Shown: positions 1-8,161 of the stretch, one piece after another
Numbering within the stretch: position 1 is the stretch's first letter
Layout: each line of letters begins with the position of its first letter
Virus record (IMG/VR): IMGVR_UViG_3300043568_002887
Span: 4,261-68,260 of that record
Reading direction: 5' to 3' (one strand)
DNA: 64,000 bases
Source: a virus
Translations under genes and position numbers: made by a program
Notes under the pieces: generated by a model
The model's input: the letters and a program-made list of their open reading frames with translations, nothing else
The model's database searches: none
What the model was told of the DNA's origin: nothing

Positions 1-726
1 CGTTCAGCAATACTCGGAGGTTCTGGAAATAATATGACATGTAATTATTCAGGAGCATTTGGTTGTAATATTACCTCAGTCGCAGCATGTACCTTCCACG
101 TAAATAATCTTTCAGTTTATAATACACCAGCAGCAGACGAAACAAATACTGCAGTACTAGTTAGAGAAGTATCAACTGGTCTTATTAAGACTAGAACACT
201 TCCAGCAGCTGCAACATACGGACTATATACTCAAACAAATACAAGTACACCAATCACAGCAACGGATTCTGAACTATCACTATTAGATGGTGGTTTAGGC
301 ACTCTTACAATTCCTGCAAATGGATTTAAAGTAGGAGATAGCTTTACTGGTGTATTGATAGGCCACTTATCTTGTGTAGGTACAGCTACTTTGCAAATTA
401 GAGTTAAAACTGCGTCAGGAATATTACTAGCAGATACAGGAGCAATGGCAATGAGTCTTACTGCAAATAAGCATTGGAAATTAAATGTTGATTTTACTGT
501 AAGACAATTAGGAGCAGCTACTGTAGCTTCTATAGCATCAGGAGGATTGTTTGCATATACTAAGAATTCAGGCCTTAACTTTGAAGGAGTAAATTTTAGT
601 TTAGTAGAAAACACAACTTTTGATACTACTATATTAAATACACTTGTTATCACTGCTCAGTGGAATACTAATAACGCAGGAAATTCAATTTATTCAGAAA
701 TATTCACATTAAGTAAGACTTATTAA
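1..726 (+). CDS. Gly-rich repeat fibre-like protein, C-terminal part (5' truncated by window)
   Basis: Frame is open from base 1 (RSAILGGSGNNMTCNYSGAFG). Shares the terminal repeat with 740..1969, then has a distinct beta-rich C-terminal domain. Confidence 0.6.
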   Translation, partial: RSAILGGSGNNMTCNYSGAFGCNITSVAACTFHVNNLSVYNTPAADETNTAVLVREVSTGLIKTRTLPAAATYGLYTQTNTSTPITATDSELSLLDGGLGTLTIPANGFKVGDSFTGVLIGHLSCVGTATLQIRVKTASGILLADTGAMAMSLTANKHWKLNVDFTVRQLGAATVASIASGGLFAYTKNSGLNFEGVNFSLVENTTFDTTILNTLVITAQWNTNNAGNSIYSEIFTLSKTY

Positions 727-1994: not shown

Positions 1995-3194
1995 ATGTAC
2001 GGATCAGGAATGGAAATGCCTAAAGTTTCTTTTGCAGCAATTGACTGTAGTCAAATCGCTGCAGGTAGTTACTTTGTTGGATTTAACTTGGATACATCAG
2101 GAGCTCTTTCTAAAATGGACTCAAGTGGGACAGTTACTCTAATGGAAGGTTCTGGTGTAGTTAATACTGGTTCAGGAACATACTCAACATATAGAATAAG
2201 TACAAGTAACACTGCAAGTGGAGACTATTCAACAGTATTTGGTTACACAAACACAGCTAGCGGATATGGTTCAAATATCCCAGGAGGATATAATAATACT
2301 GTAAACTTTGACTTATCTACTGTTTCTGGAGGATATGGAAATACTTCAAGTGGATACTATTCAGTAGTTGGTGGAGGAGCATATAACACAGCCCTATCTG
2401 ACTATTCAACAGTTAGTGGAGGATACAATAACTCAGCTATAGATATCTCAACTACTGTTTCTGGAGGATATAGTAATAGTGCAGGCGGAATTGGTTCTAC
2501 CGTTTCTGGCGGAGTACTTAATACTGCATCTGGTTATCAGGCAACAATCGGTGGAGGATATAGTAACTCAGCAAGCGGATACTGCCGTGCCACTGTTAGT
2601 GGAGGATATAGTAATACTGCAAGTGGATACTATTATGCAACTGTTAGTGGAGGATATAATAATACTGCAAGTGGATATTATCCATCAACTGTTGGAGGAG
2701 GCCAGAGCAATGTTGCAAGTGGAAGTCACTCAACGATTAGCGGAGGATCTAGTAATACTGCAAGTGGAAGTCACTCAACGATTAGTGGAGGAGGTTGTAA
2801 TACTGCAAGTGGTGGACTTTCATTTATTGGAGGAGGATCATGCAGTGTAGCTTGTGATAATTATGCAATAGTAGTTGGAGGATATCAAAATACAGCAAGC
2901 GGTCAGTATTCAGCAATACTTGGAGGATACTGTAATATCTCTTTAGGAACAAGATCGATTATTGGAGGAGGATATTGCAATACTGCAAGTGGAAATTATT
3001 CTGGAATACTTGGAGGATTTGGAAATAATACAAATTGTTGTAATTGTGCCTTTATCATAGGCTCAGGAATTACAGCAGACTCTGTATGTACCACATTTGT
3101 TAACTGTTTATCAATTAAGAGTATTCCAACTACTTCAGCTGGACTCTGTGCTGGAATGATATGGAGTGATTCAGGAAAACTATGTATTGTATAA
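1995..3194 (+). CDS. Gly-rich ~15-aa repeat beta-solenoid fibre protein, paralog of 740..1969
   Basis: NTASGxYSTVSGGY repeats. N-terminus MYGSGMEMPKVSF matches MYKSGIEIPKVSF; C-terminus ends in a similar PTTSAGLxAGMI segment. Confidence 0.65.
   Translation: MYGSGMEMPKVSFAAIDCSQIAAGSYFVGFNLDTSGALSKMDSSGTVTLMEGSGVVNTGSGTYSTYRISTSNTASGDYSTVFGYTNTASGYGSNIPGGYNNTVNFDLSTVSGGYGNTSSGYYSVVGGGAYNTALSDYSTVSGGYNNSAIDISTTVSGGYSNSAGGIGSTVSGGVLNTASGYQATIGGGYSNSASGYCRATVSGGYSNTASGYYYATVSGGYNNTASGYYPSTVGGGQSNVASGSHSTISGGSSNTASGSHSTISGGGCNTASGGLSFIGGGSCSVACDNYAIVVGGYQNTASGQYSAILGGYCNISLGTRSIIGGGYCNTASGNYSGILGGFGNNTNCCNCAFIIGSGITADSVCTTFVNCLSIKSIPTTSAGLCAGMIWSDSGKLCIV
2714..2785 (+). repeat. Tandem 27-bp identical copies, 45-bp period
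   Basis: TGCAAGTGGAAGTCACTCAACGATTAG at 2714-2740 and 2759-2785. Confidence 0.85.
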
Positions 3195-3688: not shown

Positions 3689-4497
3689 TACTTAAACTCG
3701 TCATAGAACCACTTGTAATTAGTCTTAATCCAGTTACATGCGCCTTGACCTAGTATCTCTTTGTAATCTACTTTTAGAGGTTCAAGCTTTTTACGAATTT
3801 GGTGATCTCCATACATTCCATACACTGCATCGTCTTCTTGTGTGATCTGTTCTATATTATCAAAATCATGATCAAAATAAGGTAGACTAAGATACTCGTA
3901 AATCTTCTTCATTTCTGGTATAGGATTCTTTGCCAAGTCTTCATATTTAATAAAGAGCATCTTTTTATCGACGCCTTCCTTAAATACTTGTTGTAGTCGC
4001 TCAATAGCTAATCCTACTGGTTGACCTGCAGCCCAAATATCTATTCTTTTTTCAGTACTAGTACCTGTCATGTTTGCATGATTTACAATTCCTGAATCCA
4101 AGTGTTGATTCTTACGAAAGTTTTTCTCCATTGATGCAAAGATTCCTCTAAGATCCCTAACCATACAGATAATCTTAGGCTCAGGATAGAACGAATTTAG
4201 GAAGCCATGGTGTACTCCCCAACCTCTGCTCTTATCTAGGACATATGGCTTATCAGTTACGCCATTAAAGAATCCTAATACTCCATCATGACAGAATTGA
4301 GTAAAACCAGATCGCATTAGGGATGAGTCCTGTGCTTTGAACTCAGGAGAATTAGTGTAATTGTTTCTGGCCGCATATACTAATTCTAGGACACCTGAAG
4401 TAGGAGTAACATAGAAGTCCGGATTTTGGCCGATAATATTTTGTAGGAGAGTCGAACCGGCTCTAGGCAGAGAGGATTGAAAGAATAACTGTTTCAT
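3682..4497 (-). CDS. PAPS-dependent sulfotransferase
   Basis: 5'-PSB loop SLPRAGSTLL, 3'-PB motif MVRDLRGIFAS, and KYEDL motif. Confidence 0.9.
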   Translation of the reverse strand: MKQLFFQSSLPRAGSTLLQNIIGQNPDFYVTPTSGVLELVYAARNNYTNSPEFKAQDSSLMRSGFTQFCHDGVLGFFNGVTDKPYVLDKSRGWGVHHGFLNSFYPEPKIICMVRDLRGIFASMEKNFRKNQHLDSGIVNHANMTGTSTEKRIDIWAAGQPVGLAIERLQQVFKEGVDKKMLFIKYEDLAKNPIPEMKKIYEYLSLPYFDHDFDNIEQITQEDDAVYGMYGDHQIRKKLEPLKVDYKEILGQGACNWIKTNYKWFYDEFKYY

Positions 4498-5129
4498 AAT
4501 ATGTTGGATTCGTAATTTTTATTTTGCACTATTTGATTAAATGGCTGAACTATTCGAATACGATACTTTCCTATTGAGGTATGGTTATAACTCATATGTT
4601 GAATTACTTTAGCATAGAAATTATCAATCTCCATACCAGAGTGTTCTCCCATTTCTAGAATATCATCGTATAGATTTGCAGAGACTCCATATGCATGAGC
4701 ACACACTATTTGGTTTCTAAAAAATGGTTCAACAAGTCCACCGAAATAGAGCATGTCCCAGTCATTAAGTATCTCTTGATTTATGGTAAGAAGTTCATTT
4801 GGATCTACTAAGAATTCGATATCATCCTCTAGGATCAAGACTCTACTGTATCCATGAGCCTTAGCATACTTGACTGCATTAAGGTGTGCTCTTCTACAAC
4901 CAAGCTGACCTTTAATGTACTTTTCATCGTTCTTTATAAAGTTACGATAGGTGATCGGCTCAGACAAATCTATTAAGTCGCTGCCTGCAATCCTTTGAAA
5001 ATTAGTAATTCCAAACTTTTCAAACTGCTGAATCATACCCAAATTACGGGAGACGTCCTTATCCATATTAATGTATAAGATCTTGTCAAAATACTCGTTG
5101 ATGTTTACTGGACGATACGTAAAATCCAT
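4494..5129 (-). CDS. Glycosyltransferase, GT25-like
   Basis: YINMDKDVSR, LGCRRAH, LILEDD and WDMLYFG motifs. Confidence 0.85.
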   Translation of the reverse strand: MDFTYRPVNINEYFDKILYINMDKDVSRNLGMIQQFEKFGITNFQRIAGSDLIDLSEPITYRNFIKNDEKYIKGQLGCRRAHLNAVKYAKAHGYSRVLILEDDIEFLVDPNELLTINQEILNDWDMLYFGGLVEPFFRNQIVCAHAYGVSANLYDDILEMGEHSGMEIDNFYAKVIQHMSYNHTSIGKYRIRIVQPFNQIVQNKNYESNIL

Positions 5130-6019
5130 TATATTGAATTTAAAATTTCAGCTGAGTCAAAAATATTTAGGTCAAGCAGAGGACACTCATGATTTGCACC
5201 ATGGAAGTTATAGTCAAATAGGTAACTATCTGGTAATTTAACTTCGCTTGGAAGCTGTGCTACAATATTATTGTGTAATTCATATCCAAATATCTTAGGT
5301 GATGTGCCTACCCATAATACGGTGGATTTTAGGTTTAGCGCAGCAGCAGCATGTTGGATACTTGAATCAATTAGGACCCTCTTTTCTGAGAAGAGAAGCA
5401 GTGATAATAACTCCATATTTGACATAGGTTCAAAAATAGCCTCTGCTCCAGGAATAGCCTGTTCTGGTGCTCTACATATTTGAATAACATGATAGTTTTG
5501 ATTAAGGTATGATACTACGTCATTTGAAATATGAGAAGGGATATCTCTAGTCCATGAATAAAGATATGGCTGTTCAGTTAAAGGCCCGCCGTTCGTTTGG
5601 ATTACAGCAATCGGTCGATCTCTCTTCCATTTCTTGAATCCATACTGTTGTTGACGGATATTAAATACTAATTCAGGCGATTCTCCTGAAAATTCTAAAT
5701 TATATAACTTACACCAGTTTTCAATTAGTGGTAACTCCTTATGGATATGTTCGCTTGTAAAATAAGGTTCATGCTTAAAGATTAAGCTATCCTTTCCATC
5801 AATAAAATCTTTATAGAAGTATGGGGTTCCACCAATTCTATAAACTCGATCCACAAATGGTAGATTTAGGAAGATTTCAGGATAGGCACAAACAATAATT
5901 AGTTCGCGATCAGGATGATTATTTTTGATACATTTAGCTACTGCCGTTGCCGCAATATGTTTTCCAAGACCACCTTCTAGGTGGAATACTGAAAATTTAC
6001 TTGTTTGTTTCTTTGCCAT
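5129..6019 (-). CDS. Glycosyltransferase, GT9 (heptosyltransferase)-like GT-B fold
   Basis: GGLGKHIAAT N-terminal motif and IDSSIQHAAAALNLKSTVLW C-terminal motif. Confidence 0.75.
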   Translation of the reverse strand: MAKKQTSKFSVFHLEGGLGKHIAATAVAKCIKNNHPDRELIIVCAYPEIFLNLPFVDRVYRIGGTPYFYKDFIDGKDSLIFKHEPYFTSEHIHKELPLIENWCKLYNLEFSGESPELVFNIRQQQYGFKKWKRDRPIAVIQTNGGPLTEQPYLYSWTRDIPSHISNDVVSYLNQNYHVIQICRAPEQAIPGAEAIFEPMSNMELLSLLLFSEKRVLIDSSIQHAAAALNLKSTVLWVGTSPKIFGYELHNNIVAQLPSEVKLPDSYLFDYNFHGANHECPLLDLNIFDSAEILNSI

Positions 6020-6425
6020 CGATTTGTTTATTTTTTAGTAATTTTTCAAGAAGATCATGTGCTTTTGGATCGACTAGCCATTTCCAATCTGTTTCACCAG
6101 AAACTATTTGTCGTCTAATTTCAGTAGCTGATACATTAGCTATTGCTGTGCTAACTTTTATCTCAGTTACCTCATATCCAACACCTCTTCCATAGTTTAC
6201 ACTAGCAATATCTGGTATGATAATGATTTTAACGAGAGGATTATTTGCATAGATTTGTGCCCATACTTGTAAAACTTCATTTGCAGTAAATGGATTGTTT
6301 TCGTCAGGTGCAACGTCTCTAATTGCAATTAACAGAGGTAAACCCTTTTCTAAGTATTCATTAAAGATGGTCATGTGACCTTTGTGTGGTGCTTGATAGC
6401 GACCGATAAACATATTATACGTCAT
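5997..6425 (-). CDS. HxGH nucleotidyltransferase (cytidylyltransferase-like); candidate minimal ATP sulfurylase
   Basis: FIGRYQAPHKGH, YGRGVGY and VSATEIR motifs. Family is supported by motifs; the specific activity is inferred from gene context. Confidence 0.7.
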   Translation of the reverse strand: MTYNMFIGRYQAPHKGHMTIFNEYLEKGLPLLIAIRDVAPDENNPFTANEVLQVWAQIYANNPLVKIIIIPDIASVNYGRGVGYEVTEIKVSTAIANVSATEIRRQIVSGETDWKWLVDPKAHDLLEKLLKNKQIDGKETNK

Positions 6426-6883
6426 AGTCTCTCTTTTTTTACTTTTTGAATTCCAAAAGGAATATGGTACCAGATTCTTTCGTGAATATAGTAGGTAAAT
6501 ATCTTAATTAAGAAATCAGCAACTCCAATTGAGAAGCCGATCCGAGTATCTCCTAAAATAAGGGATGCAATTAGTGCTGTGATACATGATGAGTAAATCC
6601 TATAAGTTAGTGACTTTAAAAGGTGTCGCTTATGACTTATCCACTTAGCACTATCACGTAGGATAACTTTATCCCCTTCCCAAACAATTAGGTCAGGCTC
6701 ACAACTAATGTGGAATTTTTTTCCAACACCTTCAATAAAATCATCAGTTGTAACACTAGGAACAAGAACATCAACATTTGATGCAAGGTGTTCGTACCCA
6801 TCAATTACGACTCTCCATTTTAGAGGGCTTTCACCAGCGACAGTATTATATCTAATCTTAACCTTTTTTCCCATGTGTCTCAA
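6422..6883 (-). CDS. DUF2061-like membrane domain fused to an unknown N-terminal domain
   Basis: KRHLLKSLTYR...KIFTYYIHERIW pattern with two hydrophobic helices. Confidence 0.7.
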   Translation of the reverse strand: MRHMGKKVKIRYNTVAGESPLKWRVVIDGYEHLASNVDVLVPSVTTDDFIEGVGKKFHISCEPDLIVWEGDKVILRDSAKWISHKRHLLKSLTYRIYSSCITALIASLILGDTRIGFSIGVADFLIKIFTYYIHERIWYHIPFGIQKVKKERL

Positions 6884-7351: not shown

Positions 7352-7899
7352 TAATTAAAATCTAATTCAATATCAAAATCAAAGTAGACGAATTTTGCAG
7401 TAAATGTTGCAAATTCAGGAGTTGCTGAACTATATGAAAGTTTGAATCCGTCTTGAGCCTTAAGAATAGGCCGTTTAAAGATAATCGAAGATACTAAATA
7501 TCCTTCATTATCTAATAGAGAGAGCCTCATTGGAGAGAAGGTCTGCTGTTTATTTGAAAAATCTAGGTATTTTAGAGAGTTCTCTAAAAAGATAAAGTAG
7601 TTTAGGTAAGCATCAGTCAATTTAAAAGTTATAGTAAACTCTCTAGTAAATAAGTCGACTACTTGAGTAGAGTTCTTATAATCTTGTTTCTTACCAAATA
7701 ATCTAGTTTGTGTAACTGGATCCATCGTCCATCCTGGAAAATCAATTGATTGCACGGTGGCTGACATGAACTCGTCAATAGTATCGTACGGAAGTATTAA
7801 ACTTTGATAATATTTCTTGTATTTTTCCTTGATTTCAGGTGCAAAGAAATCTGGTGGAAAATTAAATATGAATCCATTCTGTCTTACGTTAAGTAGCAT
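7351..7899 (-). CDS. Tail tube / baseplate-tube (gp19/gp54-like) protein
   Basis: Size, VQSIDFPG...REFTITF...FTAKFVY beta pattern and position near gp15/gp14-like genes. Confidence 0.45.
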   Translation of the reverse strand: MLLNVRQNGFIFNFPPDFFAPEIKEKYKKYYQSLILPYDTIDEFMSATVQSIDFPGWTMDPVTQTRLFGKKQDYKNSTQVVDLFTREFTITFKLTDAYLNYFIFLENSLKYLDFSNKQQTFSPMRLSLLDNEGYLVSSIIFKRPILKAQDGFKLSYSSATPEFATFTAKFVYFDFDIELDFN

Positions 7900-8161
7900 A
7901 TGTTATTTTACTTTTTACTATTTTTATTTTTAATGTGTCAGTTCCTTTTATCAACCTATGCCATTCACCCATTGAAATAAACACTGGTGAATTTAGGCTT
8001 TGTGGAAGTCTATTCTCTAGCTGAATTAGCCAATCAGTTTCTTCTACTGCAACCACTGTTCTGTATTCGTCATCGCGATGCCATTTTAATTCAATTGGAT
8101 CGATTGATTCATCAAATGTTCGAATCACATATTCTTCTAATTCAAGGTCACTATAAATCAT
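7889..8161 (-). CDS. Small cupin-like conserved phage protein
   Basis: WHRD...WHRLIKG pattern. Likely start is the ATG at 8161, in a TAATG overlap with the upstream stop. Confidence 0.6.
   Translation of the reverse strand: MIYSDLELEEYVIRTFDESIDPIELKWHRDDEYRTVVAVEETDWLIQLENRLPQSLNSPVFISMGEWHRLIKGTDTLKIKIVKSKITYAT

Follow-up and report, generated by a model that had tools for sequence, protein, structure and literature searches.

A small HIGH-motif nucleotidyltransferase paired with APS kinase in lake-water phages is a probable non-canonical ATP sulfurylase

How does a phage that encodes an adenosine 5'-phosphosulfate (APS) kinase come by its APS? The question is raised by a 64-kb piece of viral DNA (64,000 nucleotides, here called the window; positions 4,261 to 68,260 of the 68,260-base IMG/VR record IMGVR_UViG_3300043568_002887, CheckV completeness 27%). 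It holds a cassette with genes for a shortened APS-kinase-like protein (K), a small membrane protein with a DUF2061 domain (D) and a HIGH-motif nucleotidyltransferase of 142 residues (N). To our knowledge, only two types of ATP sulfurylase are recognised, Sat and CysDN. An earlier note on this DNA had remarked that the cassette has neither, and this holds further afield: neither Sat (PF01747) nor CysD (TIGR02039) was found in the whole record, incomplete as it is, or in four viral records related to it, of which one, with 464,605 bases, is rated 98% complete. We propose that N is probably a non-canonical ATP sulfurylase (ATP + sulfate → APS + pyrophosphate) of a compact K-D-N module that would make 3'-phosphoadenosine 5'-phosphosulfate (PAPS). 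The substrate and reaction that we infer for N come from its genomic context.

Freshwater phages with large genomes are described as carrying cysC (APS kinase) among their auxiliary metabolic genes, and the gene is interpreted as assimilatory sulfate reduction (Nat Microbiol 2024, PMC10914622). The words sulfurylase and sulfotransferase do not occur in the main text of that paper, so the source of APS is not discussed there. The setting resembles that of the window: 23 of the 24 DNA data sets with its cassette are labelled lake water metagenome. No RNA data set is among those listed, which has no bearing on expression either way. A literature search over titles and abstract openings found no paper on the N family or on a small sulfurylase other than Sat and CysDN. 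The superfamily of N and the reaction proposed for it are known; the family is unrecognised.

N is a real gene and not a chance open reading frame (ORF), since it has 1527 database matches at E ≤ 0.001, the best 120 of them 65-96% identical, and since an alignment of 19 homologues contains 53 invariant columns. Its recognisable segments are GRYQAPHKGH (residues 8-17, with HKGH at 14-17), IRD (35-37), NYGRGVGY (77-84, with YGRGVGY at 78-84) and VSATEIR (98-104). The earlier note had singled out HKGH, YGRGVGY and VSATEIR in a very small protein; all three are there, on the minus strand, which it had left unstated, and all three lie in invariant columns. The catalytic motifs HxGH and ISxTxxR are invariant or nearly so across the family, which argues that N is an active enzyme. 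Source annotations name its relatives 'nicotinamide mononucleotide adenylyltransferase' (NMNAT) or hypothetical, and many of the NMNAT names come from the Joint Genome Institute (JGI). This bears out the note's expectation that such proteins usually pass as cytidylyltransferases or NMNATs.

The link of N to APS kinase is seen most directly in fused proteins, for which the earlier note had suggested a search. We scored N against 1.84 billion cluster representatives (50% identity) and examined the best 150 of 823 matches; Pfam content at E ≤ 1e-7 was called for the 66 representatives of at least 185 residues. Fifty of these 66 carry an APS kinase domain (PF01583), in the order kinase-N in 37 and N-kinase in 13. 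The others carry DUF2061 (2 of 66), DUF6717 (1 of 66) or nothing further (13 of 66). Both domain orders occur, and the fusion therefore arose at least twice. Four fused kinases tested all pass the NCBI apsK equivalog cut-off, with 202-257 bits against 138.7. PHROG 10255, called 'kinase' and 230 positions long, is itself such a fusion: its first part matches K and its last part N. It is present in cultured phages of Xylella, Xanthomonas and Stenotrophomonas.

The records of these cultured phages label the fusion in various ways. It is called 'kinase' or 'hypothetical' in Xylella phage Salvo (gp32; L001, 5578-6324) and its relatives and in Stenotrophomonas phage DLP_6 (L002, 4593-5324); the GenBank record of Xylella phage Bacata names it 'Adenylylsulfate kinase'. 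In Salvo its surroundings are early genes and genes of DNA metabolism, and no sulfotransferase is annotated in the vicinity.

The same association appears in gene neighbourhoods. A first set of 105 loci, all with an N ORF, consists of the window, 79 viral loci and 25 cellular ones. Scoring of their ORFs with local profiles shows that K accompanies N in 94 of the 105, as a fusion (31), as its direct neighbour (49) or within two genes (14). Among the 11 loci without K, six are cut by a contig end and three are DUF2061-N fusions. In 65 of the 105, DUF2061 itself is no more than two genes away from N. A second, wider cellular set, collected with a broader search pattern, comprises 61 loci and extends to many more lineages: metagenome-assembled genomes (MAGs) labelled Thermodesulfobacteriota or Dadabacteria, Nitrospiraceae, Flavobacteriales, Marinimicrobia, marine group III and DPANN archaea, Moraniibacteria and Chlamydiae. 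Here 32 of the 61 loci have K close to N: 11 as a fusion, 18 as its direct neighbour and 3 within two genes. We speak of a K-D-N module where a gene of the APS kinase family is joined to N or no more than two genes away, DUF2061 often being present too. The window holds such a module, and its kinase gene lies two genes upstream of N, a distance that agrees with the earlier note. At one locus (L036, 2556-3731) N lacks a nearby kinase and has an IS605 OrfB/TnpB-like gene on its upstream side; this locus may be rearranged.

Other neighbours of N also belong to sulfate metabolism. In 24 Chitinophagaceae-type loci a DUF2061-APS kinase fusion (171 bits) is followed by N, with a 4-base overlap, and then by a sulfotransferase. 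A Nitrospiraceae MAG has sulfite reductase, PAPS_reduct (CysH) and N in succession; the slot beside sulfite reductase and CysH is the usual place of a sulfurylase gene. A CysQ-like Inositol_P phosphatase precedes an N-K fusion and a second K in a Methanosarcinales MAG, and accompanies K and N in a Moraniibacteria MAG. A Marinimicrobia genome presents Sulfotransfer_5, K and N. In known pathways these enzymes, sulfotransferase, CysH, sulfite reductase and CysQ-like proteins, act upstream or downstream of PAPS.

Some of these loci show further features. In two Nitrospiraceae MAGs (L137, 664-4411, and L138) N shares a single run of genes with CysH and a sulfite reductase-TusA fusion, and the same genomes hold a Sat-APS kinase fusion (a frame of 587-588 residues) elsewhere, which could mean two separate sulfate-activating systems. 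Five loci (L184, L187, L192, L194 and L197), from Methanosarcinales, Woesearchaeota and Nanoarchaeia MAGs and one labelled only 'archaeon', encode an N-kinase fusion of 303-305 residues plus a second, stand-alone APS kinase gene before or after it. About 22 Chitinophagaceae loci (for example L005: 1221-3586 on the minus, 3826-5244 on the plus and 7395-8072 on the minus strand) have three or four tandem 'phage tail collar' domain proteins flanking the N operon, and the same flanks contain an Asp/Asn beta-hydroxylase-like protein and a 2-oxoglutarate-Fe(II) oxygenase. The tail collar proteins may be modified substrates, and the hydroxylase and oxygenase further modifying enzymes. In two marine phage contigs (L053, 2067-3497; L072, 6296-7840) genes of TctA-family transporters adjoin K-N; a role in anion uptake is a guess.

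Fusions and neighbourhoods tie N to APS kinase without specifying the reaction of N. It is accordingly conceivable, though unlikely, that N acts in PAPS metabolism as something other than a sulfurylase. It might assist APS kinase in a regulatory or non-catalytic way, it might adenylate a different anion or acceptor (leading to a 3'-phosphorylated adenylate other than PAPS, compare phosphopantetheine adenylyltransferase (PPAT) and dephospho-CoA kinase), or it might be an adenylyl transferase that consumes APS. PPAT is indeed the second-best fold class of N, and two genomes have both Sat and N. A silent partner fits poorly with the near-invariance of the two catalytic motifs described above, and all versions leave unanswered where the APS comes from that is still needed in genomes lacking Sat and CysD but having apsK and, in many cases, CysH.

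This gap in the pathway can be counted. Among the first 30 N-carrier genomes Sat is found in none and CysD in 2; among 25 further, more diverse carriers Sat is found in 2 and CysD in 1, under its cut-off. In all 55, Sat is thus found in 2 and CysD in 3. These genomes do have the kinase: apsK is over its cut-off in all five of one group tested and in 24 of 25 of another, and an APS kinase was seen in each of these 30. The five large Chitinophagaceae genomes have no apsK other than the copy next to N, and aprA, as another source of APS, is over its cut-off in none of the five. Thirteen small genomes with Thermodesulfobacteriota or Dadabacteria labels, mostly recorded as whole chromosomes, each contain a single apsK and a single PAPS_reduct; neither Sat nor CysD was found in these 13.

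As a control we took a sample of 151 genomes of the same (Chitinophagaceae-type) bacterial family, in which N occurs in the centre genome only. Its 54 apsK genomes include 41 that also encode CysD and 11 that encode Sat. Of the remaining two, G002 carries N, and the other, whose apsK sits at a contig end, lacks all three. The Sat genes of the control adjoin apsK in the genomes whose positions were compared. So apsK almost never occurs without a sulfurylase gene, and where the known ones are missing, N is present. CysD is found in 2 of 30 carriers and in 94 of 150 sampled genomes (Fisher p = 6e-9, uncorrected for relatedness, the carriers including a few genomes of other phyla). With the fusions and operons, these pathway holes support the earlier note's proposal that N supplies the missing sulfate-to-APS step, as a predicted activity.

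The note had also pictured N as a stripped-down Sat, and this did not survive. In Pfam, N matches only CTP_transf_like (PF01467; 23.2 bits against a cut-off of 21), which places it in the HIGH superfamily. PF01747 has no match to P0001, the N protein of the window, at E ≤ 1, and its best score in any N relative is 23.8 bits (P0223), under the cut-off of 24.3. Aligned by hhalign with 14 genuine Sat catalytic domains, N pairs in only 36 C-terminal columns, with a probability of 55%; there VSATEIR corresponds to LSGTxLR of Sat, a motif general to the superfamily. QTRNP-x-HRxH and GRDHAG are invariant in the 14 Sat domains, and N has GRYQAPHKGH and NYGRGVGY instead. The note had likened YGRGVGY to GRDHAG. 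We rejected them as homologues, as hhalign leaves these regions unaligned and aligns only the one around ISxTxxR; a convergent role of the two is possible. Sat (sat/MET3, and the sulfurylase domain of PAPS synthase) does share with N the superfamily, HxxH after strand 1, (I/L/V)S(G/A)TxxR, frequent fusion or adjacency to APS kinase and the reaction proposed here. It differs in its length, about 390 residues against about 130-140, in its PUA-like N-domain and in QTRNP and GRDHAG, all of which N lacks.

The nearest relatives of N are the archaeal NMNATs. Its best NCBIfam matches are the archaeal NMNAT models TIGR01527 and NF002243, and no NCBIfam model passes its cut-off for the stand-alone N proteins P0001, P0114 and P0122. 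The earlier note had advised comparing a predicted structure with Sat, NMNAT and HldE. The AlphaFold2 (AF2) model of N (pLDDT 91.6) has its best PDB matches in archaeal NMNATs (TM 0.69), then in NadM and PPAT, and Sat is absent among the top matches listed, so the comparison points to NMNAT. Archaeal NMNATs (MJ0541, 1f9a; M. thermoautotrophicum, 1ej2/4yp7) and NadM share with N the motifs GRxQPxHxGH, NPFT and SxTEIR and a Trp after the last helix. Since profile and fold are nearest to NMNAT and the Sat alignment is confined to C-terminal columns, N is best described, from sequence and predicted fold, as a distinct branch of the HIGH nucleotidyltransferase superfamily nearest archaeal NMNAT, and not as a trimmed Sat.

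Does N then simply adenylate NMN or nicotinic acid mononucleotide and make NAD for the phage, as part of a salvage or replenishment pair with a P-loop neighbour that would be a nucleoside kinase? This is distinctly unlikely, although the best NCBIfam, PDB and fold matches and the JGI names all speak for it, as do the kinases of the phage branches, which are short and match PF01583 weakly (33-50 bits), so that they may not be specific for APS; many T4-like phage loci, moreover, show no sulfotransferase. N stays far under both NMNAT cut-offs (42.9 bits against 127 and 38.1 against 181.2). Positions 8-76 of the family align with residues 5-76 of MJ0541, and positions 84-132 with residues 109-155. 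Between them, after NMNAT strand 3, the seven residues SVNYGRG (family positions 77-83) replace 32 residues (MJ0541 77-108), a segment that we take to contribute to the nicotinamide-nucleotide pocket. An invariant Arg-Asp follows strand 2 in the N family; this RD and NYGRGVGY are family-specific and set N apart from archaeal NMNATs. Around it in genomes stand genes for sulfotransferase, CysH, sulfite reductase and CysQ-like proteins rather than NAD genes, and the fused kinases tested are bona fide apsK by the NCBI cut-off. Finally, NadD (TIGR00482) is over its cut-off in all five N carriers tested, and N is therefore not needed for NAD synthesis.

Least likely of all is an HldC/HldE-type sugar-1-phosphate adenylyltransferase giving ADP-heptose or a similar donor to the next enzyme, the alternative offered in the earlier note: the next gene, overlapping N by 23 bases, does encode a fold like that of family 9 (GT9) heptosyltransferases, and the HldE transferase domain is a small cytidylyltransferase-like protein, but this neighbour accompanies N in 7 of the 105 first-set loci against 94 for K, the bacterial N operons described above have no glycosyltransferase, no HldE or HldC family is among the 14 NCBIfam matches of N at E ≤ 1, and no other heptose-pathway gene was seen in the window's cassette.

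Several points weigh against N being a sulfurylase, or against how widely this can be said. By sequence and fold its closest relative is an NMNAT and not Sat: the N family profile matches MJ0541 NMNAT at E 2.5e-15, and Sat-APS kinase at E 0.074 in the ISxTxxR region only. No kinase lies within two genes of N in 29 of the 61 second-set loci, and a sulfotransferase lies within four genes in 33 of the 105 first-set loci, a figure from a seeded search. Many marine T4-like phage contigs have K-(D)-N beside gp23, UvsX or DsbA and no recognisable sulfotransferase; in these branches PAPS may have another end use, or the kinase even another substrate. The K of the window scores 50.6 bits with apsK TIGR00455, under the cut-off of 138.7, and because it is both shortened and so far under, its own substrate is itself deduced. 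N is not always the sole sulfurylase candidate, as two carriers, both Nitrospiraceae MAGs, have a canonical Sat-APS kinase fusion elsewhere, and two others, both Bacteroidota, have CysD over its cut-off. Most carriers are MAGs, so that absent Sat and CysD may reflect incompleteness, and they are interrelated, so that the counts are not independent. The host of the phage could also make its own APS.

With these points weighed, we still regard N as a probable sulfurylase, and a mechanism can be sketched. N would descend from the archaeal NMNAT branch rather than from Sat, and would bind ATP through GRxQxxHxGH and SxTxxR like its relatives. Sulfate would sit in a shrunken acceptor site lined by the invariant Arg36-Asp37 and by the NYGRGVGY loop with Arg80; we infer that the basic residues of RD and NYGRGVGY bind the anion. 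Its attack on the α-phosphate of ATP would yield APS and pyrophosphate, and K would phosphorylate the APS to PAPS. The ATP sulfurylase reaction is strongly unfavourable alone, and a tight coupling of N to the kinase would therefore explain the fusions and the overlapping genes. D, a two-helix membrane peptide fused sometimes to K and sometimes to N, probably tethers the K-N pair to the membrane. In the lake-water phage, PAPS would feed the sulfotransferase three genes downstream of N, which probably sulfates a glycan built by the GT9-like and family 25 (GT25) glycosyltransferases between them.

Comparison with the known sulfate-activating enzymes gives a similar picture. CysDN, heterodimeric and GTP-coupled, has the pathway position proposed for N, and the two are largely mutually exclusive in genomes. 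CysD is unrelated in fold, being a PAPS-reductase-like ATP pyrophosphatase, and CysDN has a GTPase partner; none was seen beside N. Bifunctional PAPS synthases (Aquifex 2gks, human PAPSS) resemble the N-K fusions in that one chain combines an APS kinase with a nucleotidyltransferase, whichever comes first, and so implies two steps in succession. The N-K fusions differ in being only about 250-320 residues long, in a transferase half drawn from another family and in the small DUF2061 membrane protein that often stands alongside.

The cassette of the window (Table 1) is a co-directional run of six genes, K, D, N, the GT9-like protein, GT25 and sulfotransferase. The start codon of N overlaps the stop codon of D as ATGA, and the last 23 bases of N overlap the start of the GT9-like gene. 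K retains the P-loop, IDGDELR and ISP, with a lid that falls 14 residues short of that of canonical APS kinases. In the related 464-kb phage contig L041 this cassette encodes a full-length APS kinase, K195, and this suggests that the K of the window serves the same purpose. Complex prediction for K and N of the window scored 0.00, evidence neither for nor against an interaction. Residues 1-87 of D form an extra N-terminal region without a family match; in most other loci D has only 70-80 residues. Fusions of DUF2061 are of two kinds, with APS kinase (in Chitinophagaceae) and with N (P0124, P0262 and L106).

Table 1. Genes of the K-D-N cassette in the window, with positions in the window
Feature	Position	Strand	Assignment and evidence
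N: HIGH-motif nucleotidyltransferase, 142 aa	5997..6425	minus	proposed sulfate adenylyltransferase; PF01467, fold, homologues
D: 153 aa, DUF2061 two-helix membrane domain at residues 88-138	6422..6883	minus	PF09834 E 2.6e-14
K: shortened APS-kinase-like P-loop kinase, 147 aa	6858..7301	minus	PF01583 E 5.3e-13
GT-B-fold protein resembling GT9 heptosyltransferases, 296 aa	5129..6019	minus	predicted fold
Family 25 glycosyltransferase (GT25), 211 aa	4494..5129	minus	PF01755 E 1.6e-6; phrog_2835 glucosyltransferase E 3.2e-15
PAPS-type sulfotransferase, 271 aa	3682..4497	minus	PF13469 E 6.8e-19; PF00685 E 7e-14; weak NoeE-like NCBIfam match

The GT9-like assignment comes from structure prediction. 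The AF2 model is of moderate confidence (pLDDT 68.9), and its best Foldseek matches are WaaF (1psw), TibC (4rb4) and WaaC, with TM 0.5-0.56 and E about 1e-7. Searches of Pfam, NCBIfam and PDB sequences gave no match, and one Atlas cluster has GT9 on 15% of its members. The cassette is flanked by tail-fibre-like repeat proteins on one side and baseplate-like genes on the other. The former are Gly/Ser-rich (window 1-726, 740-1969 and 1995-3194, all on the plus strand), with UspA1_rep and beta-roll matches. With these fibre-like genes next to the cassette, and with the protein heptosyltransferase TibC among the fold matches, virion proteins might conceivably be glycosylated and sulfated.

On balance we favour a broader proposal, that N represents a third, minimal class of ATP sulfurylase (about 115-180 residues), which would have arisen from an NMNAT-like ancestor by trimming of the acceptor site to an anion pocket. 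Combined with APS kinase and a DUF2061 peptide, N would amount to a portable PAPS synthase. This module would be common in phages of fresh and marine waters and would be the sole sulfate-activating system in Dadabacteria-type Thermodesulfobacteriota, Marinimicrobia, marine Flavobacteriales, DPANN archaea and bacteria of the candidate phyla radiation. Genome-based metabolic reconstructions score sulfate activation by Sat and CysDN. If N is a sulfurylase, pathway calls would change for lineages with APS kinase and PAPS reductase but no known sulfurylase, little-studied lineages in which the use of sulfate would be under-called at present. N would also be a very small enzyme for in vitro production of PAPS, and the cultured phages with a K-N fusion, Salvo and DLP_6, offer convenient experimental material. 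For phages that carry only 'cysC', N would explain the source of APS: instead of being a piece of assimilatory reduction, 'cysC' would belong to a complete sulfation kit. A sulfurylase family of this kind would also point to phage-directed sulfation of glycans or virion proteins.

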